A stretch of DNA of 24,000 nucleotides from Candidatus Heimdallarchaeota archaeon. Its GTDB lineage: Archaea > Asgardarchaeota > Heimdallarchaeia > Hodarchaeales > Hodarchaeaceae. A model generated the notes under the pieces. It was given only the letters and a program-made list of their open reading frames with translations. It ran no database searches and was not told the origin of the DNA. The stretch is from positions 46,105 through 70,104 of the forward strand of contig DXJL01000156.1 of the NCBI GenBank assembly GCA_019057635.1, given 5' to 3'. Position 1 is the first letter of the stretch; each line of letters begins with the position of its first letter. A program made the position numbers and the translations under genes. Below, piece after piece: positions 3,079 to 24,000 of this stretch.

Positions 3079-4269
3079 TTATTCAAAGAACAAAAGCTCT
3101 AATGTTTCTTTCATAGGGGAGGAAAGACGGTAGTAAACTTCTCTACCTTCCTTGAAATAGGAAATGATTCCCGCTTTCAAAAGGGTCTGACATTGATACG
3201 TTAAGGAAGAATCTTTAATTCCTGACCTCTCCTGGAGCTCTGATCGCTGAATTGAACCCTCTAAATAATCAAGAAAGATCATCTCCTCTAAAATTTCCTT
3301 CTTAGGAAGTGCGTTCTTTTTTATACGAGTTAAAGAACGGGTAAATGATGGAGAAATGGCTTTTAATGGATCTATTATAGGCCAGAACTCTCCTCCAGAT
3401 TCATCTTTTTCTTCTTGAACGATTCGAGCATTATTATCGATAATGAGTCTTAGAGCTTTCTCGAAACTCAATCTGGATACTACACTTTGAAAATCATCGA
3501 GAGTAATTTTTTGGACCTTGTTTCGATCAATAACTTTGAGGGGGATATTTCTAATTATCCAAAGAGCAAGTCCTGGAAGACCCAATGATAGAATACCTGC
3601 ATAGCGCAATATATTCATAGGTAGGAATTGTGTACTTTCAAGGAAATCCATCCTTTCCTTTAATATTTGGACGATTTCGGTATGACTAGGCTTTTTATAA
3701 TGGAAGAAGAGTGGTTTATGGTCAAATAATACTAACTCCTCACTTTTTGACCGTCTTCTTAACCAATGATCTTCAATTGAATTTAATAATGTCACAATAA
3801 CTATTTTATCATGGCTAGAGCGTCGGAGAAGATCCTGGAAGGAAGTAAATGATAAATCATCCCAAATTGGAAAGATATCATCCAAGAAGAATATCTGCGT
3901 CGAGGAAAAATCTGTCTCTTCCCACCACTCCCAAAATTTATGATCGTACTGAACATAACGAGAATAGTTAGGACCGACGATACTATTAATTTCCTGCGAA
4001 ATAAAACGTGCAGCAGAAGATTTTCCGATTCTTCGTGGCCCCAAAAGTGTTAAGGAAAGGATTTCATTTGGTAAAGGCGTAGCATTTACCATTTGTCCAA
4101 GTAAATGGCTTAATCTCTGAATTTCAGAAGTATTGATATAACACTGAGGAAAAGAAATAGGGAAGTCATCCTGAAAAACATTATTAAGCATCTGACTAAA
4201 ATTTAATTGCTCACGCCAATGCCGCGAGTGTTTTTTACCTTCTAGAAATAATTTTCCAGGAGAATCCAA
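3079..4269 (-). CDS. P-loop ATPase of the archaeal ATPase (PF01637-like) type with a C-terminal winged-helix domain
   Basis: 396 aa. Walker A is LLGPRRIGKSSA, matching the GPRR.GK[ST] signature typical of 'Arch_ATPase'. Walker B-like is QIFFLDDIF. The C-terminal segment SELQERSGIKDSSLTYQCQTLLKAGIISYFKEGREVYYRLS reads as an ArsR/MarR-type wHTH. Confidence 0.65.
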   Translation of the reverse strand: MDSPGKLFLEGKKHSRHWREQLNFSQMLNNVFQDDFPISFPQCYINTSEIQRLSHLLGQMVNATPLPNEILSLTLLGPRRIGKSSAARFISQEINSIVGPNYSRYVQYDHKFWEWWEETDFSSTQIFFLDDIFPIWDDLSFTSFQDLLRRSSHDKIVIVTLLNSIEDHWLRRRSKSEELVLFDHKPLFFHYKKPSHTEIVQILKERMDFLESTQFLPMNILRYAGILSLGLPGLALWIIRNIPLKVIDRNKVQKITLDDFQSVVSRLSFEKALRLIIDNNARIVQEEKDESGGEFWPIIDPLKAISPSFTRSLTRIKKNALPKKEILEEMIFLDYLEGSIQRSELQERSGIKDSSLTYQCQTLLKAGIISYFKEGREVYYRLSSPMKETLELLFFE

Positions 4270-7356: not shown

Positions 7357-8172
7357 TTACTTCCGTTTCTTCAATATTAAAGCATAATGGTGATGGATAT
7401 TGGAAACAAAACTATATGGATAGCCATACGGTCTCAAATTTTTCTGATTTTGTAACCAAATTCGTTCTCCCAAAAAGGAATACCATTTTGTTAGACGTAG
7501 GGGGAGTTCGAAGGCGAGAGGTATCATTTCTCCCTTATCCCTGACATTTTGGATAAATACAATTAGATGGGCTTGGGGAAGTAATAGTTCATGAATTTTA
7601 GTGAATATATCTACCAATTCATTTAGGAACTCTTCTTTTTCTTCTATCATTCCTAAATCAAGAGGATTTTGCCCATATTGGAGGTCGAGACCTTTTTCTA
7701 AGCGTTCTTGTTGATTATAATCTTTTTTTTTCTTTAATATTCGCCAATATGGAGGAGAGGTGATGCAAAGAGAAAAAGATTGTTTTTCTAAAGTGGGTAG
7801 AAGTATTCGGACATCACCTTCAAGAACAGGGAACTTTGTTCTAGATTTTGCAGTTTTAAAATACTTAGGATAAAGTTCTATACCGATACCCTTTCTTGCT
7901 GTGTTTTCACAGGCAACTAAAGTCGACCCTGTCCCCAAAAATGGATCTAGTACTATTTCACCAGGTTTCGTGAAAAATTCGATGAATTCTTCTATCATAG
8001 AGGGAGGAAATGACGCAGGATGTAAATCAATCTCATGTGAAATGTCACTTGGTCTACCATCGGCTATAAACCAAGATTTTGTAAAACGAATCCACTCTTT
8101 CCCCGAGAGTGCGTTTAGCTTATTCCGAGGATCAATCTTTCCTGAATCTTTCATCACTATCCACTCTCTCAA
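7357..8172 (-). CDS. DNA (N4-C or N6-A) methyltransferase with PF01555-type signatures and motif I upstream of motif IV
   Basis: 271 aa. HPASFPPSMIEEFIEFFTKPGEIVLDPFLGTGSTLVACENTARKGIGIELYPKYF matches the HP..kP..L.erli...t.pgd.VLDPF.GsGtT...A..lgR..iGiEi block. The catalytic-loop motif CITSPPYW lies about 60 aa downstream. The listed start is TTG (8172); the first in-frame ATG is at 8154. Confidence 0.8.
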   Translation of the reverse strand: MREWIVMKDSGKIDPRNKLNALSGKEWIRFTKSWFIADGRPSDISHEIDLHPASFPPSMIEEFIEFFTKPGEIVLDPFLGTGSTLVACENTARKGIGIELYPKYFKTAKSRTKFPVLEGDVRILLPTLEKQSFSLCITSPPYWRILKKKKDYNQQERLEKGLDLQYGQNPLDLGMIEEKEEFLNELVDIFTKIHELLLPQAHLIVFIQNVRDKGEMIPLAFELPLRLTKWYSFLGERIWLQNQKNLRPYGYPYSFVSNIHHHYALILKKRK

Positions 8173-8400
8173 TCCATTTTTCTAAGTTAAAAATATATAA
8201 TAAAAAGGTACGGTGAGGAATCATGACTAAAATTGTCAGACAACTCTTGAAAACGAGTTCTGGACAGGATGAGTCACACATCCGCTATCCGGCAGGTTAG
8301 TAACACTAGAATGGATACTATCCGTTGGGACTACTTGGGAGTCTGTAGGATAACGTTGAAGAATATTCCGAGCCGCGTTATAATCGGCATTCAGATGAAC
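8173..8400 (-). ncRNA. Predicted omega-RNA (reRNA) region of the tnpB element
   Basis: Placed by analogy only. In IS200/IS605 elements the guide RNA scaffold overlaps the 3' end of tnpB and ends at the right end of the element. No structure was verified here. Confidence 0.25.
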
Positions 8401-9555
8401 CCCGCACCTCTGACAACAAAAGGAACCTCGCGATGTTCGATTCCGCTTATCTACATGGCCACACTTACTACATTGTTGGGAGGTATACGCTTCGTCTACC
8501 CGTACTACGGTCATTCCAACAAGTTTAGCCTTGTATTCAAGCATTTGAACCAATTGGGAGAAGGGAAGTTGAATAAACGACTGATTTATCCGTTTTCCTA
8601 AGTTGCAGTGCTGTTTCCATCCCGCATTATAACCAATGACTAAGGTCTTTATCTTCTGCTCTAAACAGTAGTTGATTATTCGACGGGAGATTTGATGGAA
8701 GATATCGTGGAGCTTATTAATCCGTCTACGATGTAGGCGTTGTATACGACGAGTAGTATACTGATGATTACAGATGGTGGCTAAGGATCGATAATGCGCA
8801 AGTTGCTTGTTATACCACTGATTAATGGTCTTAACTACCCCGCCTTTGACGAGTAAGCCGTCTGACGTAGTTACGAGATTGGTAAGACCGAGATCTATTC
8901 CCATAGTTCGGGATGGAAAATCAGAGGAAGGAAATGGTTGCGCTTGTACTTCATAGAGTAATTCTACCACAAAGCGATCATAAAATGGCACTAACCGCGC
9001 CCCAACACATGCTTCCGCTGTCAATGGAAGAGAATCCAGGGGAAAGGTCGGAAACCCTCGTGCCATGAGATTTCGAGTAAATAGAATTTGGCTATTACGG
9101 ATTCGAACTCTGCGCCGGGGAAAGCTCAGCATATACATTCCGTTCTTGGGTTTATATCTAGGGGTTCGGGGGCGGGTTCGAAACCGGCCAGGATCCTTTT
9201 TCCAAACTTTCAGCGCGTTAAAAAAGCTGCGCCAAGTTTGTTCTACCTGTCGTAGGACCTGTTGGGGTAAATAGCTATCAGACATGTCTTTTAATGCTAG
9301 ATACACTGGTTCGTGCTTGAGGCGATGATATAGGTTGGTATATTGGATCCATTTCCCTGTACTGAAAAATTCTTGTCGTACCTCATATGTCGCTCGATTA
9401 TAGAGATTTTTGGCACAGGTGCACAAATCGGTGAAAATTGGCCTAGGTTTCATTTGCATTCGGATAGCTAATTGGGGTTGAGGGTTTTTCTTGATACGCA
9501 TTCCCATTCCTTTTTGGAATTTTCACTCTTATAAACTTGAGACAAAGAGAGAGCG
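8200..9555 (-). mobile_element. tnpA-less IS200/IS605-family element carrying only tnpB (boundaries approximate)
   Basis: tnpB has no Y1/HUH transposase ORF on either side. Hand counts of 60-nt lines inside tnpB give 43-50% G+C (lines 8941 and 9121), against about 32% in flanking genes (lines 7621 and 9661). The composition step coincides with roughly 8.22 kb and 9.52 kb. Exact LE/RE hairpins were not resolved. Confidence 0.55.
8236..9507 (-). CDS. tnpB: TnpB (IS200/IS605 family OrfB, RNA-guided RuvC-type endonuclease)
   Basis: 423 aa. RuvC triad candidates are D in MGIDLGLTNLV, E in VDEAYTSQQC and D in LNADYNAARNI. A zinc ribbon CSKCG...CCQRCG sits between RuvC-II and RuvC-III. There is an N-terminal helical bundle (NLYNRATYEVRQEF). 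Confidence 0.9.
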   Translation of the reverse strand: MGMRIKKNPQPQLAIRMQMKPRPIFTDLCTCAKNLYNRATYEVRQEFFSTGKWIQYTNLYHRLKHEPVYLALKDMSDSYLPQQVLRQVEQTWRSFFNALKVWKKDPGRFRTRPRTPRYKPKNGMYMLSFPRRRVRIRNSQILFTRNLMARGFPTFPLDSLPLTAEACVGARLVPFYDRFVVELLYEVQAQPFPSSDFPSRTMGIDLGLTNLVTTSDGLLVKGGVVKTINQWYNKQLAHYRSLATICNHQYTTRRIQRLHRRRINKLHDIFHQISRRIINYCLEQKIKTLVIGYNAGWKQHCNLGKRINQSFIQLPFSQLVQMLEYKAKLVGMTVVRVDEAYTSQQCSKCGHVDKRNRTSRGSFCCQRCGVHLNADYNAARNILQRYPTDSQVVPTDSIHSSVTNLPDSGCVTHPVQNSFSRVV

Positions 9556-9639
9556 GTGAAATTGATGAATGTGATGAAATTGAACCCTTTTTCTTCCCGA
9601 CCAGTACTGATAAAAACTAGTGTTCTGACAAATTTGATC

Positions 9640-10287
9640 ATGCCTAAGATTCAGTGTATCATATTCGATGTGGATGGGACATTACTTGACAATACAAATT
9701 TTATAGTATCCCTATTTCAGGATACTGTAATAAAATATCTTGGACCAGCAAAAAGTATGTCTAGGAATGAAGTTTTGTCATTATGGGGTCCACCTGGAGA
9801 TGAAATCTTTAGAAAAGTATTTCCACCCGAGGTAGTTGACGAAGCTTGGTCAGAATTTCTCATTAAGTATCGTAACACTCATACAAAAACGGGTTTTTTT
9901 TCTCGTGTGGAATTGAATGACTTTCGGAAATATGTTCAATATCTAGTAATTTTTACTGGTAAATCGCGTTATACTAATACCATCTCTTTGGAAGAATTGG
10001 ATATTACTGATTGTTTCGACCTTATCTATACTGGAAGTGATGTGGAAAATTCAAAACCCCATCCTGATGCACTGTTCCTTATATTAGAAGATTTAGATCT
10101 GAATCCGGATAAAGTAATCTTTATTGGGGATAGCCATCTTGATATCATTGCAGGAAAGGCTGCAGGTATTCCAACCGCTGGGGCCGAATGGGGAGCAGTT
10201 GAGTTGGAAAAGCTCCTCCAAAGCAAGCCTGATCATGTTTTTAAGACCCCAAATGACTTTATCAAGTTCATAGAAAGCGCTTCATGA
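9640..10287 (+). CDS. HAD-superfamily phosphatase (phosphoglycolate phosphatase / PpaX-like)
   Basis: Motif I is IIFDVDGTLLD, immediately after the ATG at 9640. Motif II region is FTGKSR. Motif IV is IFIGDSHLDIIAGKAAG. The track ORF starts at GTG 9556, but the 28 extra residues precede the nucleophile motif, so ATG 9640 is preferred. Confidence 0.8.
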   Translation: MPKIQCIIFDVDGTLLDNTNFIVSLFQDTVIKYLGPAKSMSRNEVLSLWGPPGDEIFRKVFPPEVVDEAWSEFLIKYRNTHTKTGFFSRVELNDFRKYVQYLVIFTGKSRYTNTISLEELDITDCFDLIYTGSDVENSKPHPDALFLILEDLDLNPDKVIFIGDSHLDIIAGKAAGIPTAGAEWGAVELEKLLQSKPDHVFKTPNDFIKFIESAS

Positions 10288-10302
10288 TTTGGTCTTGATT
10301 TT

Positions 10303-12447
10303 ATGACTAAAAAAATGATTGAAACCACTTTTCCAATCATTGAAATAAGTCAACTCGCCATACCTGAACGCAGCAGCTATAAACCTATTTATCAGATTTC
10401 TAAATGGTTTGCCCGACGATCTTCGGCTATTTTTAGGGCCATTCTCCTTAGCTGTACTCTTAATTCATCAGAGAATTTCATGGACGAATTTTATAATGCT
10501 AAGGATAGTTTCAAAGATATAACTATTCTTGATCCATTTATGGGAGGAGGAACAACAATTATAGAAGCTTTAAGGCTTGGTATGCAATGTATCGGAGTTG
10601 ATATTAATCCAGTTGCATGGTTTATCACTAAAACTGAGAGTGCTATGGTCGATATAGAAGAACTTCAAGGTTTAATCACAAAATGTGAAGAAAACCTTGA
10701 AAATGATGTGAAAAAATGGTATAAAACCTCCTGTCCAGTATGTGAGAATCCCGCTGATATAATTTACACTCATTGGGTCAAATGCTTACCCTGTCCGACA
10801 TGTAATTCACTCATCCCTATGTTTCGTAATTTTCTTGTCGGTTATTTGGCTAATGAGGCAATCCTTCTCTGTCCCTCATGTTATGCAGTATTTCCTTCAA
10901 ATAAACCGATCACATCAGATAATAGATGTCCTGAATGTACTCAAAAATTCAAACCGAGTGCGGGTTTTAGAAAGGGTAGAAAATTGCTCGAATGTCCAGA
11001 TTGTGGAAATTCTGTCAATATCTTAAACTCTATTCGTTCGATTAAGACTCCTCTCGCTTGCAAACCGTTTGCCATTGAAGGATATTGTTGTCACTGTGCA
11101 AATGAGAAAGATCCTGATTCAGACCTTGCAAAATCTAGATATAAATTTATCAAAAGAGTTTCACAAACAGACAGAGATCTTTATAAAAAGGCTGAAGATC
11201 ACTGGAAGAATTATTCAGGCATCTTTCTTTGGCCAAAAGAAGATATCCCGATTGGCATGACAACAAAGGTTTTATTAAATCATAACTATACTAAATGGGC
11301 TGACCTATTTACATACCGTCAATTATTAACTTTGAGTTTAATTTTAAACTTCATTAAAGACATTGAAGAAGAACATCTCCAAGAGATGTTTTTAGCGGCA
11401 TTTCTAAACCTCTTAAATCACAACAATTCGTTTACAAGGTATTCTCCTAAAGGGCAAAAAGTCGAGGGGATATTTTCTCGCCATGATTTTCACCCTTTGT
11501 CTACATTTGCAGAAAATAATGTGTGGGGGACGAGATATGGACGTGGAACTTGGATCAAATGCCTCAAAAGATTACTAGAAGGGAAGAAGTACAACCTTGA
11601 ACCCTATAATTTTACGTCTATAAATTCCAAAGAAAAGATCTCTAAGCGTCGAAGAATCGTATCTGGTAAAATTGATGGAAAAGTATACAATGGAGAAATT
11701 GAGCATTTTCCTGATGAAAAAAGTAATTTACTTCTTCTCTGTCAAGACTCTGAAAAACTTCCCTTGTTTACAAATGGCGTTGACCTTTTGATCTCTGATC
11801 CCCCGTATGCTGATAATGTAAATTATTCAGAACTATCTGATTTCTTATATGTTTGGATTCGATTAATATTACAGGAAAAATATCCCTTCTTTATTCCAGT
11901 TGAGACTCCAAAATTGGGAGAGGCAATTGAAACAAAAAATAGAGGTACTGATTACTATTCCAAACTCTTTAATATTTTTAGAAGCTGTAAGAAACAGCTC
12001 ATCCCAGGTGGGTTGTTTGTATTTACATTTCATCATGGTAATCCTGATACTTGGTTTAAACTTGCTGAAGTAATTGAATCGTCTGGTTTTAGCGTGGTTA
12101 AAACGCATGTTTTGCAGAGTGAAGCCTTGAATGTTCTGAATATCCAAAATAAGAAAGCCGTGTCTTATGATTTAATTCTTGTCTGCCAGCAGAATCAACA
12201 AAAAAGGAAAAAACCCCATAATTTATCAGAATTTGTAGAACGGTTAAGCAAGAATTATGATAAGAAATTTACCTATTATACTGAGATAGGTCTCACAATA
12301 CATACAAATAATGTGATAGTTGTATTCTTTGGTGAATATTTGGAGCTTATTTCAAAGGTACAACCAGTAAACTGGTCAGACTCAATTGCTAAATCTGATC
12401 TAAGAAAAAGTTGTAAAGACCTTTACTCGAGTAAAATTATTGCCTGA
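10303..12447 (+). CDS. DUF1156/COG1743-type adenine-specific DNA methyltransferase with three inserted zinc ribbons
   Basis: 714 aa. N-terminal DUF1156-like block: MIETTFPIIEISQLAIPERS...ISKWFARRSSAIFRAILLS. Motif I: ILDPFMGGGTTIIEALRLGMQCIGVDINPVA. Three CxxC...CxxC pairs: CPVC/CPTC, CPSC/CPEC, CPDC/CCHC. Motif IV: LLISDPPYADNVNYSELSDFLYVWIR, the family-typical DPPY...Y..LSDF.YVW. Confidence 0.8.
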   Translation: MTKKMIETTFPIIEISQLAIPERSSYKPIYQISKWFARRSSAIFRAILLSCTLNSSENFMDEFYNAKDSFKDITILDPFMGGGTTIIEALRLGMQCIGVDINPVAWFITKTESAMVDIEELQGLITKCEENLENDVKKWYKTSCPVCENPADIIYTHWVKCLPCPTCNSLIPMFRNFLVGYLANEAILLCPSCYAVFPSNKPITSDNRCPECTQKFKPSAGFRKGRKLLECPDCGNSVNILNSIRSIKTPLACKPFAIEGYCCHCANEKDPDSDLAKSRYKFIKRVSQTDRDLYKKAEDHWKNYSGIFLWPKEDIPIGMTTKVLLNHNYTKWADLFTYRQLLTLSLILNFIKDIEEEHLQEMFLAAFLNLLNHNNSFTRYSPKGQKVEGIFSRHDFHPLSTFAENNVWGTRYGRGTWIKCLKRLLEGKKYNLEPYNFTSINSKEKISKRRRIVSGKIDGKVYNGEIEHFPDEKSNLLLLCQDSEKLPLFTNGVDLLISDPPYADNVNYSELSDFLYVWIRLILQEKYPFFIPVETPKLGEAIETKNRGTDYYSKLFNIFRSCKKQLIPGGLFVFTFHHGNPDTWFKLAEVIESSGFSVVKTHVLQSEALNVLNIQNKKAVSYDLILVCQQNQQKRKKPHNLSEFVERLSKNYDKKFTYYTEIGLTIHTNNVIVVFFGEYLELISKVQPVNWSDSIAKSDLRKSCKDLYSSKIIA

Positions 12448-12453
12448 TATTGA

Positions 12454-13236
12454 GTGTATAGCATGAGCGACGAATCCAAATACAAACTAGTAATAGGAGA
12501 TGTTAACCATGCTCTACCTAATATGGCAAAAAAACGTTTGTTTGATTTAATCATTGCTGACCCTCCATTTGGAATTTCCTTCAGCAAATCTTCTCATGAA
12601 TATGGAGCAGACGAATATCACCTATATAATGACGATTATACTACTGATAATTATTACGAATTTTCAAAAAAATGGATTTTAAATTGTTATAATGCGCTTA
12701 GTCCAACTGGAAGTCTTTATATTATATCTGGATGGACTAATCTTCAATACATTTTAAATGCACTTGAAACCACAGATTTTCATATGCTAAATCATGCGAT
12801 TTGGCATTTTTCATGGGGGGTCTACACGAAACGTCGCTTTGTTACAAGTCATTACCATATTTTATTGCTTGTAAAAAATCGTAAGAAATATCAGTTCTAT
12901 AAACAAAAGCATTATGATGAAGATGTTTTCTTTTGGCAGGAATACAATAGAGGGAATGACCCTCATCGTATTAAGGGACATCCTTGCCAACTTCCCATAG
13001 TTCTCCTAGAAAAATTAATTCTAACCTCAAGTTCTGTAGGTGATCTAGTAGGAGATGTATTTTCTGGATCTGGAGGGACGATTCTAGCAGCGCGTAAGAC
13101 TGAACGGGATGTAATAGGATTCGAACTTAGAGAAGAATATAAACCCATTATCGAAAAGAAAGCGTTGTTTGGGAAATCTCTATACAAATATAATCAGAAG
13201 AATACACTAGATTCTTACTTAGAAACACAAGAATGA
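12454..13236 (+). CDS. Beta-class N6-A/N4-C DNA methyltransferase (PF01555 type)
   Basis: 260 aa. Motif IV (DLIIADPPFGISF) is N-terminal and motif I (VGDVFSGSGGTILAARKTERDVIGFELREEY) is C-terminal, preceded by GHPCQLPIVLLEKLI. The GTG start at 12454 lies 6 nt after the upstream stop; the ATG alternative is at 12463. Confidence 0.85.
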   Translation: MYSMSDESKYKLVIGDVNHALPNMAKKRLFDLIIADPPFGISFSKSSHEYGADEYHLYNDDYTTDNYYEFSKKWILNCYNALSPTGSLYIISGWTNLQYILNALETTDFHMLNHAIWHFSWGVYTKRRFVTSHYHILLLVKNRKKYQFYKQKHYDEDVFFWQEYNRGNDPHRIKGHPCQLPIVLLEKLILTSSSVGDLVGDVFSGSGGTILAARKTERDVIGFELREEYKPIIEKKALFGKSLYKYNQKNTLDSYLETQE

Positions 13237-19097: not shown

Positions 19098-20075
19098 ATG
19101 AAGATTCATTGTGATAGTGATTGCCGACCATGTGTCTTTGAAGGGGGGCCAAGTCGTGATATTTCAGATCAATTCGAAGCTAATTATTGCCCTACCTGCA
19201 GGAAAGCTTTTTTCTGTGATGTAGGAGTAATTCAACACTTCTCTGCCGCTAGTAGCGTTTCCTATTCTTGTGTGGATTGCAATACTCCTCTACTGACAAA
19301 ATCTCTTGAAGAAATTAGTATGCTTCAAGCTCGTTTCTCCTTGAAGAATCAATCACATTCTAGTCGTCTCTCTTATAAACAAAAATTTATTCCCAAAAAG
19401 GATTTAGCGTCTCTTAAATCGCTTTCAATGTTATACGATATTAAATCTGTAAGTACTTATCACCGCTCACTGATTGATGAAATCCGTCATATTTCAGGGT
19501 TATCACCACAGGTTATCAGAAATTTTGCCCGGGAGTATGGGATTAGCGAGACGATTATTTCTAACCTATCTGGAGAACGAGAAGAAATTCTTCTCACACT
19601 TGCCAGCTTACAACCAAAATTCATTGAAATACTGTATGCAATAATAATTGGTCGCGATCCTTCTATCGAAGGAGGAATAGCGTTAAGATTCACTGTTTAC
19701 TCTGAAAATATTGGAGATATTGTTTTTATTCAGCCATCTGGGGCATTAATAGAAAGCGGTCCATTTGACCTAATCGCTTATGATCATCAAGGTATGATGA
19801 TTTGGATTTTTTGCATACAAGAAACTGTCGATATTGACGATATAAGTAAAATCGTAAGCCCAATATTAAATCAAACATTAGATGAATTTAAGGGTATTTC
19901 AAGTATTTATATTGTCGCTCAAGCATTTTCGTGGGTATCTAAACAAATTTTAAAGAAATATCAAGGTATTATTATCAGAGAGGGAGAAAAAACACGAACT
20001 ATTCCTTTCAAGTTATGGACTGAGGAAAAAAAATCAGATCAAGCTCAAATCTTATTTAAATCGGAAATCCTCTGA
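19098..20075 (+). CDS. Uncharacterised protein: N-terminal Cys-cluster/zinc ribbon, central HTH-like segment, C-terminal restriction-endonuclease-like (Mrr_cat-like) region
   Basis: 325 aa. Cys at positions 5, 9, 12, 31, 34, 40, 58 and 61, including CPTC...CVDC. HTH-like segment: GLSPQVIRNFAREYGISETIISNLSG. C-terminal FDLIAYDHQGMMIWIFCIQETVDIDDISKIV...IYIVAQAFSWVSKQILKKY resembles the Mrr-type core layout but has QET where (Q/E)xK is expected. SD-like caggtg lies upstream of the ATG. Confidence 0.6.
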   Translation: MKIHCDSDCRPCVFEGGPSRDISDQFEANYCPTCRKAFFCDVGVIQHFSAASSVSYSCVDCNTPLLTKSLEEISMLQARFSLKNQSHSSRLSYKQKFIPKKDLASLKSLSMLYDIKSVSTYHRSLIDEIRHISGLSPQVIRNFAREYGISETIISNLSGEREEILLTLASLQPKFIEILYAIIIGRDPSIEGGIALRFTVYSENIGDIVFIQPSGALIESGPFDLIAYDHQGMMIWIFCIQETVDIDDISKIVSPILNQTLDEFKGISSIYIVAQAFSWVSKQILKKYQGIIIREGEKTRTIPFKLWTEEKKSDQAQILFKSEIL

Positions 20076-20091: not shown

Positions 20092-20622
20092 TTGTCTTCC
20101 CCGACACAAGTAAATGGTTTTCATCCGTATTATAAAATAGTATTCCTTGGAAAACAAGGAGTTGGGAAAACCTCAATTATAAGAAGACTAGTTGCTTCAA
20201 ATGTTGATACAGAATATGTACCTACTCTTGGAATTTACTATTATAATTTAGAATTAGAGTATCAGAAACACAATTACTATCTCCAATTCTGGGATATATC
20301 TAATAGCTTGGATTATCAAATAAAGAACTTCTTGCAGAATGCAGCAGTCGTCGTATTGATTTTTGACTTTGCTGATAGGGAATCCCACATCTATGTAAAT
20401 CAGGTTTTTGAGACTATTAAAGAAGCAAACCCCTTCATGAAATTCCTTCTTGTTGGAAATCGATCAAAAGGGGAAAAAGAAAAACCTCCCAAGAATTTGA
20501 ATAATTTAGTGAATGAACACAATTTAACAATATACCCTATGTCCCCTCAAAATAACTCGGGGATGTCTTTGCTATTACAAGCAATTGTACATGATCTACC
20601 TCGTCCTACCGAGAGAGATTAG
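20092..20622 (+). CDS. Ras-superfamily small GTPase-like protein with degenerate G3 and G4 motifs
   Basis: 176 aa. The TTG start is forced: an in-frame TGA at 20083-20085 and no other start codon before the P-loop. G1 GKQGVGKT is at 20149-20172. G2 Thr is in YVPTLGI. G3 is WDISNS (20290-20307) instead of WDTAGQ. G4 is NRSK (20458-20469) instead of NKxD. Starts 16 nt after the upstream gene. Confidence 0.8.
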   Translation: MSSPTQVNGFHPYYKIVFLGKQGVGKTSIIRRLVASNVDTEYVPTLGIYYYNLELEYQKHNYYLQFWDISNSLDYQIKNFLQNAAVVVLIFDFADRESHIYVNQVFETIKEANPFMKFLLVGNRSKGEKEKPPKNLNNLVNEHNLTIYPMSPQNNSGMSLLLQAIVHDLPRPTERD

Positions 20623-20628
20623 ATCCTC

Positions 20629-21030
20629 TTATTTCCATTCCTCTTCATCATTTGGTAAGCAAGAGGCTTGGACAATTTCACACTCCCACCAGCGTGTACC
20701 AACTTCAAATGGGCAGCTATCATCCGTGATTTGGCACTTTCTCTCCTCTGTTAAGTATAAACAAAAACTTGACATTGTTAGACGTAGATTCATTTTCCCT
20801 GGTGCTTCTCCCATCTCATACTTCTTTGATATGGTTTCCTTTATTTCTTGATAATTCTGAATCTGTAAGGTGGTGATAATACTTCCAGTTTTAAAAGTAA
20901 TTCCCCCAGCAAGAGAATCATCGAATTCAAGAAATTTAAATAACTGTCTTTGCAGATTATCAAGAATTTCGTCATCGATATCCATTACGCCCATGAGTTG
21001 TAGCATTTCGCGCAATTTCTTTCTAAACAT
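20629..21030 (-). CDS. Hypothetical 133-aa protein with a C-terminal four-Cys cluster
   Basis: This is the longest ORF in an otherwise 577-bp gap. A GGTG (complement of 21040-21045) lies about 9 nt upstream of the ATG. The C-terminus is CQITDDSCPFEVGTRWWECEIVQASC. No family was recognised. Competing + strand ORFs (20585-20851, 20870-21073) are shorter and low-complexity. Confidence 0.5.
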   Translation of the reverse strand: MFRKKLREMLQLMGVMDIDDEILDNLQRQLFKFLEFDDSLAGGITFKTGSIITTLQIQNYQEIKETISKKYEMGEAPGKMNLRLTMSSFCLYLTEERKCQITDDSCPFEVGTRWWECEIVQASCLPNDEEEWK

Positions 21031-21110
21031 CCAACTTTACACCAGATATTTTATGGGGGAGGGAGTAAAATAATCATAAATCCCATTTTCTACGTATGTA
21101 TCATGTACGA

Positions 21111-21130
21111 GATTATATTTATAATATTGC
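21111..21130. promoter_or_regulatory. TATA-rich element in the divergent intergenic region between 21030(-) and 21200(+)
   Basis: gattatatttataatattgc lies about 70-90 nt upstream of the TTG at 21200 and about 80-100 nt upstream of the minus-strand ATG. It could serve either or both divergent genes. This is inference only. Confidence 0.25.
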
Positions 21131-21199
21131 TAACGGATTCGGTACAAGAATTTTTGTCTTTCTCGAAAACTTTTTCGATTCTCTAAAGGTGTTACAATT

Positions 21200-24000
21200 T
21201 TGACAGACCATGATTTTCAACCAGTTGCATGGGTTTCACTCGCCTCTCTATCAGGATTAAGCCTGGTGTCTTTAGGACAACCAGGATTAAAATCTGTGGA
21301 CGAACAAGTATATACAGGTGGTTTAACAGCTGTACAACAGATGTTGGGTGGAGAAATTGGTGGAGATACGAGCCGTTTTGTTGGGGGCAGTCATAACAAT
21401 AAAACTGGGAGATTTCTTGTAAAAACACCTGATTATGAACTTGTTGGCCAGTTTTTATTAATTTCTCGTCAGCATATTGCCGTAGCGCCTGTTCTTGTCG
21501 AGTTTTATGAGCAATTGGTTACATTCTTTGCTGAGGAGACCCTAAAAACTGATCTTGTTGAACGTGCAGAGAAGGAATTTACTGCGTTTGGAATCTCGGA
21601 TGTTTTAGATTTCTTTCTGAGTAGTATAAAGAAAGCCAGGAAAAAAGTATCAATCCCTCATAATGATAATCTTTTCAGTCAATCACTTGAAGAAAGCCTT
21701 GAAAAATCAATCAGTGATTATGAATACTCTGCTTCCTTGGTTAAAATTTCAAATCTAAAAGGAAAGTTTCATGAAATTGTTCCAACGATCCAAGCTGAAA
21801 GAAAAGATCTACTAGAAAAATTTACACATGAATTAATGGAATTCCTGGCAAGTGAATATCCTCACTCGGTTGTAATGTATTCTAAAGCGAGTTCGCTTCT
21901 AAAAGAAGTAAGAAAGTATGTTGAAAGAAACCTGGGTACTTTCAAATTTGATGCTGCATTGCAAGAAGTGATCCGTGAGTTCGAAGAGAACGATCTTCGA
22001 ATGTTTCTTGAAGATATTTCCTTACATGAAGTTACTAAGAAAAACCTTCGTTCTCGTATTGAAGATGCGATTTTTCGTAAATATCTCAAAGAGTTTCCCC
22101 TTTATTTTTTAGCAAACCCAGAAATAACCTCCTTTAACACCGAAGTAGGTCATTTAACGACACGAATAAACGAAAATTATGATATTGGGGGTACACTATC
22201 GCGAATTGCAGAAAAAATGATCGAAGATAAGATTTTTGCTAATTTACTAATACCTTACATAAGATATTTTTGTGAAGAATTTTCTGCAGGATTAACTCCT
22301 TCTGCATGGAAGTATATGCAAATCGTTTTTAAATTAATAAGTAATGAAACAAAAATTGATATCTTAGATGTATTACCCGCGATGAAAGATGAAATTCCTC
22401 CTTCTCATTTCAGTACTATCGAAAAAATGATGACTAAATTCAAGTTGACCGGAACCAAATTATCTCCGCTTTCTTTCACAGTAAAAAAAGCCAGTGATGT
22501 ACTTCCTTTTTATCGTGCTCTTTTTTCGTCTCTTGCTTTCGGTGTAAATGCAGTTATCTCGGAATTAGCATTCAGTGAGGAGAACCCAAATAATCTGCTT
22601 GAAACATTGAATAAAAATCTTGATCTTTTAGCTCGTGATCTTCACCAATCTCATGGAATTTTCAAAGTATATTCCTATTTAGAGAGCGTCCAGTCAAAAG
22701 TCTCATTTTCTTTTGCATTCCCCGATGACAAGATTACTTCGGAAAAAATCTTGAGTAATCAGCTTACAATCGATGAGTTGATGCAATCGGTGATTGATGC
22801 AAATGTGAAGAGCTTGTCAGAAGAAGGACAGCTTATTAAAAAGAAAATTACAGCGTTTCGTTCAGAATTCGATGATGAGATTAAGAATATTCTAAGATAT
22901 TTATCTCAAAAACCGCAGGATATTTCTAAAGGGTACCAACTCAAGATTGCTAAGCGACACTCGTTAAAATTTACTATAAGGCCCATATCCGAAGTAAATT
23001 CAAACATAACGAAAAATCTTTCTGAATTTGATAAATTAATGACAGACCTGCAAGAAAATCTTAAGAAATCGAAAAATGCTTCAAAAGAATTTGTAAATGG
23101 AAAATTAAAAGAGCAGGAACTTAAAAAAGTTTTGAAGAACCAAGGATTTATCAAAGACACTGAGAAAGAATTCCGAAAAATTACTGAAAAAATGGAATCA
23201 GCCGTAACAAAAAGTTACAGCAATGTATTATCTCTGGTAGAAAAGCAAGTAAAGGGTGTGTCAAAAGAAGCCTCAAAAACGTTTATGCAAGCCTGCAATT
23301 TCTTAAATATAAACAGAAAAAATCTTGCTAATCAAGATAGTAAATTAATTTCGGCCTCCTCTGCGTCAATGAAAAGCATTCAAAAATCTATCACAGAAAG
23401 TTTCGAAAAAGACCCATTCTTTGAATTTAAGAACGTAGGACGATATTATTTTTATGCAATATACAGATCTTTACCTAATAATTTACAGTCAGAAGTTTTA
23501 GACGCTCTTGTTACCAAAAAGAGTTATCCTTTTTTGAAAGAATCGATTACTAAAGTTACATCGTCATCCGATATATTCCGTAGTTATGCTAAAGTATTAG
23601 AAACGCATGCTTATGAGCTCTTATCGAATGTGTTTAGTTCTTCTGGGAAACTTGTCGGAAAAAACGTATTTAAATCTGATCCAGAAGTTAAAATAGTAAT
23701 TCAAAATAATATCCCTGTTCCAACACTTGAAGTGGGTTATCTTACAAATGAAAGGGCAGTTAAATCGTTAAAATCCCTTTATGGAACACGAATTGTTGTT
23801 GAAACAGAAAAATCAGAGAATAATGCCATTTATAGAATTTTACTTGTTGTTCCAAGTTTTAAAAGTGATTATAGTACAATGAAACATTTCTGGGAAACCA
23901 AGGATTGGACCCTGAAAAAGACTGTAATTACTCTGAGTTGGTTTTCCTTATTAGCACAGAACAAATTCTATTTGGACCTTCTTCGTTTCTCATCAGATTT
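21200..24000 (+). CDS. Large uncharacterised protein (more than 933 aa, 3' end beyond the window) with an N-terminal Roadblock/LC7/longin-like domain
   Basis: Frame 2 is open from the TAA at 21131-21133 to nt 24000 with no stop. It is not in the supplied track, presumably because it has no stop in the window. TTG at 21200 is preceded by aaaggtg (21185-21191) with an 8-nt spacer; the first in-frame ATG is at 21341. My translation begins (M)TDHDFQPVAWVSLASLSGLSLVSLGQPGLKSVDEQVYTGGLTAVQQMLGGEIGG... The remainder looks mostly helical, with a coiled-coil-like Lys/Glu stretch around 23.0-23.3 kb. Confidence 0.8.
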   Translation, partial: MTDHDFQPVAWVSLASLSGLSLVSLGQPGLKSVDEQVYTGGLTAVQQMLGGEIGGDTSRFVGGSHNNKTGRFLVKTPDYELVGQFLLISRQHIAVAPVLVEFYEQLVTFFAEETLKTDLVERAEKEFTAFGISDVLDFFLSSIKKARKKVSIPHNDNLFSQSLEESLEKSISDYEYSASLVKISNLKGKFHEIVPTIQAERKDLLEKFTHELMEFLASEYPHSVVMYSKASSLLKEVRKYVERNLGTFKFDAALQEVIREFEENDLRMFLEDISLHEVTKKNLRSRIEDAIFRKYLKEFPLYFLANPEITSFNTEVGHLTTRINENYDIGGTLSRIAEKMIEDKIFANLLIPYIRYFCEEFSAGLTPSAWKYMQIVFKLISNETKIDILDVLPAMKDEIPPSHFSTIEKMMTKFKLTGTKLSPLSFTVKKASDVLPFYRALFSSLAFGVNAVISELAFSEENPNNLLETLNKNLDLLARDLHQSHGIFKVYSYLESVQSKVSFSFAFPDDKITSEKILSNQLTIDELMQSVIDANVKSLSEEGQLIKKKITAFRSEFDDEIKNILRYLSQKPQDISKGYQLKIAKRHSLKFTIRPISEVNSNITKNLSEFDKLMTDLQENLKKSKNASKEFVNGKLKEQELKKVLKNQGFIKDTEKEFRKITEKMESAVTKSYSNVLSLVEKQVKGVSKEASKTFMQACNFLNINRKNLANQDSKLISASSASMKSIQKSITESFEKDPFFEFKNVGRYYFYAIYRSLPNNLQSEVLDALVTKKSYPFLKESITKVTSSSDIFRSYAKVLETHAYELLSNVFSSSGKLVGKNVFKSDPEVKIVIQNNIPVPTLEVGYLTNERAVKSLKSLYGTRIVVETEKSENNAIYRILLVVPSFKSDYSTMKHFWETKDWTLKKTVITLSWFSLLAQNKFYLDLLRFSSD

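Follow-up and report, generated by a model that had tools for sequence, protein, structure and literature searches.

A large orphan gene at the edge of a 24,000-nt stretch of a Candidatus Heimdallarchaeota archaeon assembly (GCA_019057635.1, contig DXJL01000156.1, positions 46,105 to 70,104 of the forward strand; hereafter the window) was found to encode a soluble, single-chain protein of 955 aa that is under strong purifying selection and belongs to a narrow family of Heimdall-group Asgard archaea. Structure prediction divides the protein into an N-terminal α/β module (N-module), a helical body and a C-terminal α/β module (C-module). The predicted fold of the N-module and the constraint on it suggest a longin-type platform domain that would bind a small GTPase, with the helical body as a scaffold or effector arm, a reading that we consider quite possible but short of probable.

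The open frame is a protein-coding gene

The original prediction placed an uninterrupted frame on the + strand at 21134-24000 and pointed out that it was missing from the list of open reading frames (ORFs). Both points hold, as the 955 codons from 21134 to the window edge at 24000 contain no stop, a TAA at 21131-21133 closes the frame upstream and the ORF tool leaves out any ORF that extends past the window edge. A run of 955 stop-free codons would arise by chance, at the base composition of the window, with a probability of ~2.6e-31. The earliest start codon in the frame is a TTG at 21200, with an AAAGGTG motif 8 nt ahead of it (21185-21191). That this TTG, with its Shine-Dalgarno-like motif, is the correct start was confirmed by a public database protein of 955 aa (i.e. 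P0001), which is 100% identical and whose N-terminus, MTDHDFQPV, begins exactly at TTG 21200, and by distant orthologues, where the aligned codon is an ATG that follows a GGAG/GGTG motif. As the identical P0001 has 955 residues, the window falls short of the end of the gene by 22 codons and the stop, and the supposedly giant, open-ended ORF is large, not giant.

Selection was examined through the ratio of non-synonymous to synonymous substitution (dN/dS). Against an 80%-identical orthologue (L002) the ratio was 0.09 for the whole gene and lay within 0.05-0.11 for every one of five segments, and against a 96%-identical orthologue (L001) it was 0.17. The frame is unbroken in 21/21 related loci collected, 43 full-length homologues align end to end with the window protein, and both the GC content of the gene and its GC by codon position are unexceptional, the former being typical of the window and the latter resembling another gene of the window. 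The open frame is a real protein-coding gene under strong purifying selection; neither a frame broken in relatives nor a dN/dS near 1 was found.

Three minus-strand ORFs opposite the gene had been dismissed as antisense shadows. This reading is reasonable, and economical because the sense frame is so strongly constrained; in L002, three extra stops break the homologous place of one of them (21862-22089) but the other two (21192-21428 and 22906-23160) stay open. A sub-threshold Rfam match to the S15 leader within the coding sequence (22279-22386, +; 18.7 bits against a gathering threshold of 39.5, E 0.62) is almost certainly a chance match.

Distribution and conservation of the family

When 5.8 billion proteins were searched by word index, 51 clusters (90% identity) were returned, mostly of 953-982 aa and with identities of 41-100%. 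All named members are 'hypothetical protein' entries from Hodarchaeales, Heimdallarchaeota or other Asgard metagenome-assembled genomes (MAGs). Among 1.84 billion cluster representatives, all of them searched with a profile, 38 proteins reached E<=1e-3, including full-length members of ~960-990 aa that are 18-25% identical to the window protein and to each other; named members were again all Asgard MAG proteins. No bacterial or eukaryotic member was seen in either protein search, and a search of metagenomes with the N-module returned only core-type loci. The family is thus narrow and restricted to Heimdall-group Asgard archaea. Two members that are ~20% identical to each other, P0065 (ACXAC7_08885, locus L011) and P0058 (ACXAC7_14670, locus L012), come from one MAG of the same JGI sample, their shared locus-tag prefix indicating that paralogous subfamilies coexist in one genome.

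Scans of the window protein, 43 core members, eight divergent members and 17 excised N-modules against Pfam, NCBIfam and PADLOC identified no family, no precomputed Pfam domain is recorded on any of the 51 clusters, and PDB sequence and profile searches with full-length and N-module profiles gave no match. The curated libraries produced only sub-threshold amphipathic or coiled-coil matches: those to DUF445, Apolipoprotein, Phasin and the ZorA tail were drawn by the Lys/Glu-rich helices, and those to EF_TS and S8 (E 0.005-0.02) map to the coiled coil. The claim that no sequence family can be assigned is therefore upheld, with no full-length match to a known family. The further suggestion of something undescribed stands in part. 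No paper describing the family was found in the literature and the ~955-aa two-module architecture is unmatched to anything described, but the sequence is already public as a 'hypothetical protein' and its N-module has a recognisable predicted fold of longin/roadblock type.

Conservation is unevenly distributed along the protein. Identity in the N-module is 74% among core-clade members and 41% against distant subfamilies, to which the remainder of the protein is 9-25% identical. A block in the helical body (aa 320-460) retains 64% and 25% identity, respectively, and the coiled-coil middle is the most variable region (35% and 9-13%). Of 20 family-invariant residues, 12 lie in the N-module between W11 and R71 (i.e. 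W11, G19, S24, G26, G29, Q36, G40, G41, A44, E52, G54 and R71), and R71 is identical in 19/19 sequences compared across subfamilies.

Predicted architecture

An AlphaFold2 (AF2) model built on the 43-sequence alignment had a mean pLDDT of 87.3 and a pTM of 0.68, and predicted with high confidence a three-part architecture in which a helical body of ~700 residues separates the two α/β modules. The N-module agrees with the earlier claim of a distinct domain in the first ~115 residues. It is modelled as β-β-α-β-β-β-α, with strands at residues 9-15, 21-25, 59-63, 67-75 and 80-88 and helices at 36-49 and 97-115. Residues 29-56, at the α1 element (pLDDT 36-56), form the sole stretch of the model with a pLDDT below 57, yet they are nearly invariant across subfamilies, a pattern that would be expected of a surface ordered only on a partner. 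The C-module consists of strands at 829-835, 838-848, 865-871 and 876-883, helices at 851-864 and 891-898, and three further helices to residue 954. Taken with the preceding helix (792-819), its element order may resemble that of a roadblock domain. No sequence relation between the N- and C-modules was detectable by hhalign.

The window protein has a mass of ~109 kDa, a pI of 8.6 and a basic C-terminal half. It contains no transmembrane (TM)-like or strongly hydrophobic stretch, and hhalign of eight segments, all against all, detected no internal repeats or duplication, in keeping with the original description of a non-repetitive protein without a TM signature. That description also named a helix-prone body with a Lys/Glu-rich coiled-coil-like segment; the peptide quoted for it falls at ~aa 597-672, where the model has helices, and the long helices of the body (36-49 residues) span 524-568, 597-632 and 649-697. 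Residues 590-700 have a pI of 9.6.

Such a composition could also be that of a structural or tethering scaffold without a GTPase client, whose α/β modules would self-assemble and whose basic arm would bind membrane, nucleic acid or a cytoskeletal element. This alternative draws on the ~700 helical residues of 955 with their three long antiparallel helices, on the basic segments within aa 590-955 (pI 9.1-9.6), on sub-threshold matches to families of amphipathic, lipid-surface proteins (DUF445 in 13 members, Apolipoprotein in nine, Phasin in eight and BAR_3 in three), on a weak I-BAR match in the PDB profile search (E 0.19) and on the lack of an adjacent Rab-like GTPase in divergent subfamilies. 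The helix-family matches are, however, all sub-threshold and typical of composition effects, and the absence of TM or strongly hydrophobic segments also speaks against a scaffold of this kind. Moreover, the coiled coil is the least conserved region, at 9-13% identity to distant members, and selection is concentrated on the N-module, unlike in a purely architectural protein. A scaffold without a GTPase client is thus a lesser possibility, which we regard as somewhat unlikely.

Predicted fold of the N-terminal module

Longin domains are built on a five-stranded antiparallel β-meander, with helices packed against its opposite face, in the order β-β-α-β-β-β-α-α, and roadblock domains are a permuted form with an N-terminal helix (PMC3747258, PMC10933270). 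The predicted order of elements in the N-module is that of a longin domain, with no leading helix and with a trailing helix, the α1 element being modelled at low pLDDT. In a Foldseek comparison of the model with the PDB, the coherent matches were weak and domain-sized. All matches with a probability of at least 0.8 were longin or roadblock proteins, save 5ere (a 77-column match). They included LAMTOR2 (5x6u_B; probability 0.97 and TM-score 0.55 on the target), a second LAMTOR entry (5y39_B; TM-score 0.58 on the target), a GATOR1 chain (9o5a_C; 288 columns aligned at a probability of 0.92) and, from a Roadblock-Longin protein of Lokiarchaeota, the longin domain (8yqg_A; 0.85). Chain B of the LAMTOR matches was verified as LAMTOR2. 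The Lst4 longin (4zy8_C; 0.77), further NPRL/SEA chains near it and a Thorarchaeota roadblock protein (7f8m_B; 0.66) followed. In a viral structure library the sole match above a probability of 0.6 was a longin-domain protein (0.95).

A candidate platform for small GTPases

The longin-platform reading rests on the predicted fold, on the concentration of constraint in the N-module and on the role of longin and roadblock pairs as general GTPase platforms. Dimers of these domains serve as such platforms, with α1 and the β3-β4 loop contacting the GTPase in the DENND1B-Rab35 complex (PMC3747258), and Asgard archaea encode many longin and roadblock domains (PMC10933270). We infer that the N-module could pair, via the edge of its β-sheet and its α1 helix, with a second domain of longin/roadblock type, and the pairing and every later step of the mechanism share this inferred status. 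The second domain might be the protein's own C-module, another copy of the protein, or a 133-aa Cys-rich protein encoded next to it. On the platform offered by the paired domains a small GTPase would then dock; the helical body would be a scaffold or an effector arm, and the Gly-rich α1 segment (aa 29-56) would form a functional surface together with R71. In Hodarchaeales, the client would be a Rab-like GTPase encoded two genes upstream, which lacks the catalytic glutamine and would rely on another protein to hydrolyse or exchange its nucleotide; its occurrence at all 17 core loci fits this reading. A broader proposal, which we consider rather unlikely, is that a longin-like head and a roadblock-like tail on one chain form the platform, by themselves or with the 133-aa Cys4 protein, and the ~700-residue arm is the effector. 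The family would then found a class, specific to Asgard archaea, of large GTPase regulators that carry their longin platform in a single chain and act on a dedicated Rab-like GTPase without a catalytic glutamine of its own. On this view it would parallel in prokaryotes, and might even foreshadow in design, the multidomain longin GEF/GAP complexes (GATOR1, folliculin, DENN and TRAPPII) that specify eukaryotic membranes.

Several observations weigh against a GTPase platform. All Foldseek E-values against the PDB were at least 0.1, none of the matches covers the helical body, the matches were not assigned to the N- or the C-module, and weaker matches to PAS/GAF-like sensors appeared in the same list. 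Pfam on 43 core members, eight divergent members and 17 N-modules, at cut-offs of E<=1-10 (E<=10 for the N-modules), gave no longin or roadblock match, a PDB profile search with the N-module gave no match, and hhalign of the N- and C-modules with verified LAMTOR2 and LAMTOR3 gave a probability below 1%. Assignment of the N-module to the longins of GTPase-activating proteins (GAPs) by their GP motif was tried and rejected, as G26-Q-P28-G29 lies after β2 and the motif of GAP-type longins (FLCN/NPRL2/SMCR8) lies just before or at the start of β2 (PMC12290439). The loop before β2 reads S16-L-S-G19-L, without a proline, and P28 is lost (K-A-G) in the P0065/P0068/P0070 subfamily. Gene context adds further points. 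When the neighbourhood was tabulated with family HMMs in 22 loci (17 core-type, the window included, and five of divergent subfamilies), adjacency of the GTPase in the core clade proved uninformative because the genomes are collinear over >15 kb, and neither the Rab-like GTPase nor a 325-aa gene that accompanies it was nearby in any of the five divergent loci. In addition, we know of no link of a HemK2/Mtq2-like methyltransferase, encoded downstream of the large gene, to GTPase regulation.

The sensor matches mentioned above suggest another role for the N-module, i.e. a PAS/GAF-like small-molecule or signal sensor within a signalling scaffold. PAS, periplasmic sensor and phytochrome GAF/PAS structures reached probabilities of 0.15-0.66 and a viral 'histidine kinase' reached 0.57, and the invariant Gly-rich segment could line a pocket. 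The longin and roadblock matches are higher (probabilities of 0.8-0.97 and target TM-scores of 0.5-0.58), however, and no output domain (kinase, cyclase or helix-turn-helix) is present, which makes a sensor improbable.

Gene neighbourhood

In the window, the 325-aa orphan gene is followed after 16 nt by the gene for the 176-aa GTPase, a convergent gene for the 133-aa protein, a divergent gap of 169 bp and the large gene. All 17 core loci show the same block wherever the contig reaches, and the collinearity of the core genomes reaches well past it, to RidA and PCC on one side and to gyrB and gyrA on the other. The original prediction of a small GTPase beside the large gene thus applies to 17/17 core loci, but the 133-aa gene intervenes and the arrangement is clade-specific. 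The HemK2/Mtq2-like gene lies 16-100 nt downstream on the same strand in the core loci that reach far enough (16-52 nt in those where the distance was checked) and in 4/5 divergent loci. The 133-aa gene lies next to the large gene, in divergent orientation, at each of the 17 core loci and at L009 (i.e. 18/22 loci). The most persistent neighbour is therefore the Mtq2-like methyltransferase, and the small Cys-rich protein is less strongly persistent.

This persistence is the basis of a further alternative, in which the large protein would be a substrate, adaptor or regulator of the methyltransferase in the modification of translation factors or ribosomes. The enzyme, which is encoded outside the window, carries NPPY and most resembles the HemK2/MTQ2 and PrmC families, with PRK14968 and TIGR00537 as the leading matches, and a DRG/Obg-type GTPase gene comes next in three divergent loci. 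The scores of the enzyme (66-127 bits) are nevertheless all below the curated cut-offs (87-243), the paralogue locus L011 has no methyltransferase, and the large protein is unlike release factors, Trm112 and ribosomal proteins, its EF_TS and S8 matches lying in the coiled coil. Archaeal operons often group unrelated genes, which also counts against a functional tie, and on balance we judge one unlikely.

The divergent loci include another conserved arrangement, unlike that of Hodarchaeales, in which the large gene has a Mut7-C domain gene upstream of it (L008, L009 and L010) and the DRG/Obg-type GTPase gene (MMR_HSR1 and TGS domains) directly follows the methyltransferase (L008 9853-10902, L009 9766-10941 and L010 9755-10957). 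Of the two paralogues in one MAG, that of L012 keeps the downstream methyltransferase and that of L011 is followed by a gene for a 131-aa membrane protein with a zinc-ribbon-like tail.

Proteins encoded beside the large gene

The closest PDB sequences to the GTPase are Ypt6/Rab6, Sec4 and Rab1. Its P-loop (G1) is intact and the switch-I Thr is present. The window protein has WDISNS at G3, with neither the DxxG glycine nor the catalytic Gln, and NRSK instead of NKxD at G4. Orthologues in other Hodarchaeales have DVSGN and NKxE, and the whole group lacks the catalytic glutamine, so that a partner would be needed for hydrolysis; degeneration has gone further in the lineage of the window. The protein is of the Ras family by sequence, its nucleotide specificity and hydrolysis are doubtful, and it may be a pseudo-GTPase, a GTPase of altered nucleotide specificity or a subunit locked in one nucleotide state.

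The 133-aa protein had no Pfam match. It has five invariant cysteines (C90, C99, C106, C117 and C124), four of which are kept in the distant L009 homologue (31% identity, pairwise E 8e-20, HMM E 7e-23), and may bind metal. AF2 modelled it at pLDDT 64 in the order α-α-β-β-α-β-β, with no fold match; a Trm112-like role is only an idea. The 325-aa orphan gene ends 16 nt before the GTPase gene in an operon-like arrangement, and its product is 49-56% conserved and syntenic in core loci only.

The intergenic region shared by the 133-aa gene and the large gene (Table 1) is ~85% identical to that of L002, at a gene synonymous divergence (pS 0.61) near saturation, and the TTATATTTATAATA box and the AAAGGTG-N8-TTG context are invariant in the window, L001 and L002. 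Conservation of this sequence was absent in more distant loci and Rfam on the region gave no match. A conserved RNA element was accordingly rejected, with conservation limited to close relatives, and the region probably has a promoter role.

Table 1. Features of the large gene, its predicted parts and the adjacent genes, with positions in the window
Feature	Position	Strand	Evidence or remarks
Large orphan coding sequence, aa 1-933 of 955	21200..24000	+	Open frame, identity to P0001, dN/dS, 43 homologues
N-terminal α/β module, aa 1-118, most conserved	21200..21553	+	AF2, conservation, domain-sized Foldseek matches
Gly-rich near-invariant segment LKSVDEQVYTGGLTAVQQMLGGEIGGDT, aa 29-56, α1 position	21284..21367	+	Candidate partner interface
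All-helical body, aa 119-822, with conserved block aa 320-460	21554..23665	+	AF2, pLDDT mostly >85
Lys/Glu-rich coiled-coil-like antiparallel helices, aa 524-700	22769..23299	+	AF2
C-terminal α/β module, aa 823 onward, cut by window edge	23666..24000	+	AF2
Divergent intergenic region shared with the 133-aa gene	21031..21199		TATA-like TTATATTTATAATA at 21113-21126, AAAGGTG at 21185-21191
133-aa Cys-rich orphan, divergent partner	20629..21030	-	43 homologues, named ones all from Asgard MAGs
Rab-like small GTPase, 176 aa, degenerate G3/G4	20092..20622	+	Pfam Ras, E 2.5e-18, 66.6 bits against a threshold of 21.6
325-aa orphan, Cys-rich N-terminus with several CxxC-type pairs	19098..20075	+	No Pfam or NCBIfam match

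Comparison with known longin and roadblock systems

The roadblock subunits of GTPase platforms (e.g. LAMTOR2/p14 and LAMTOR3/MP1 of Ragulator, and bacterial MglB) share with the model of the large protein an α/β sandwich on an antiparallel β-meander, and 5x6u_B, 5y39_B and 1sko_B were matched. These subunits are single-domain proteins of ~95-160 aa with an N-terminal helix, whereas the large protein starts with β1 and has ~840 more residues, and no profile similarity links them (hhalign <1%; Pfam Robl_LC7 unmatched). NPRL2/NPRL3 of GATOR1/SEACIT, Lst4/FNIP, FLCN and SMCR8/C9orf72, and the 'FLCN/SMCR8-type longin' proteins of Heimdallarchaeia (PMC12290439), resemble the predicted architecture of the large protein in having an N-terminal longin-like module and a larger C-terminal region. 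The top Foldseek match (9o5a_C) and others (6ces_N, 8fw5_C, 8adl_S and 4zy8_C; E 0.1-1.5) belong to this NPRL/SEA/Lst4 group. The module of the large protein also contains an invariant G-x-(P)-G motif and the invariant R71, a candidate for the catalytic arginine finger that GAP-type longins have spatially next to the GP motif (PMC12290439). In contrast to these GAP-complex longins, its body is helical, not DENN-like. A C-terminal region of DENN/NPRL type was rejected, as the region is all-helical instead and has no DENN, Folliculin or NPR2/3 Pfam match. A TBC RabGAP, an all-helical domain with the catalytic fingers IxxDxxR and YxQ, was also considered, on the basis of the YxQ-like Y372-M-Q374 of the core clade, and rejected because Q374 is replaced by R, K or S and R335 by K in distant subfamilies; the IxxDxxR motif is absent from the large protein and no TBC match was found in Pfam or Foldseek.

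DENN proteins and TRAPPC10 (PMC3747258) share the concept of a longin domain in a large regulator that contributes one half of the platform for a GTPase. Neither structure nor sequence comparison matched the large protein to them, and cDENN is α/β in contrast to the purely helical body of the large protein.

Among Asgard proteins, the Thorarchaeota roadblock 7f8m and the Lokiarchaeota 8yqg belong to the same phylum-level group and the same, here predicted, fold class as the large protein. Some Asgard roadblock/longin proteins are single chains that carry one module of each type (PMC10933270). These proteins are small or are GTPase fusions and can be recognised by sequence; members of the large family, at ~955-990 aa, are invisible to Pfam and, unlike them, have a helical insert of ~700 residues between two α/β modules.

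Regulation of the many small GTPases of Asgard archaea is a central open question. The family is universally retained in its clade, is strongly constrained and has a head that is predicted to be longin-like, and, with a Rab-like GTPase that is catalytically incomplete and encoded in the same fixed block of four genes, the large protein makes up a concrete, testable pair. According to Tran et al., genes for GTPases as a rule do not share operons with those for roadblock, longin or TRAPPC3 proteins, and regulators are hard to match to them (PMC10933270). If the link to the GTPase is true, large multidomain longin regulators would predate eukaryotes. If it is false, the protein is still a conserved, lineage-specific one that deserves a family definition, and its pairing with the Mtq2-like gene needs another explanation.

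Other features of the window

A role of the large protein in a mobile element or in anti-virus defence was also weighed. A gene for a TnpB-like protein and several DNA-methylase ORFs lie 8-14 kb upstream in the window, and the large protein has a weak PADLOC match to ZorA3 (E 0.0025, 14.6 bits). That match involves only the coiled-coil tail, though, the GC content is typical, no phage- or plasmid-like genes are among the neighbours, and the gene occupies a stable context near RidA, PCC, gyrase and a metallophosphatase in every genome, including two closed chromosomes. Such a role is hardly credible.

The TnpB/Cas12f-like gene (OrfB_IS605 and TNB domain; 8236-9507, -) lies in the one kilobase of the window that is rich in GC (0.42) and is flanked by the DNA-methylase ORFs in a region spanning 7357-13236. 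An ORF at 7357-8172 (-) has only the C-terminal part of an N6_N4 methylase domain, one at 10303-12447 (+) has DUF1156 and a methylase domain and one at 12454-13236 (+) has a full methylase. The region may be a restriction-modification or defence islet that was disrupted by an insertion sequence element. Finally, a 396-aa ORF at 3079-4269 (-) weakly resembles the novel STAND NTPase 3 family, at a score below threshold (E 4e-4).

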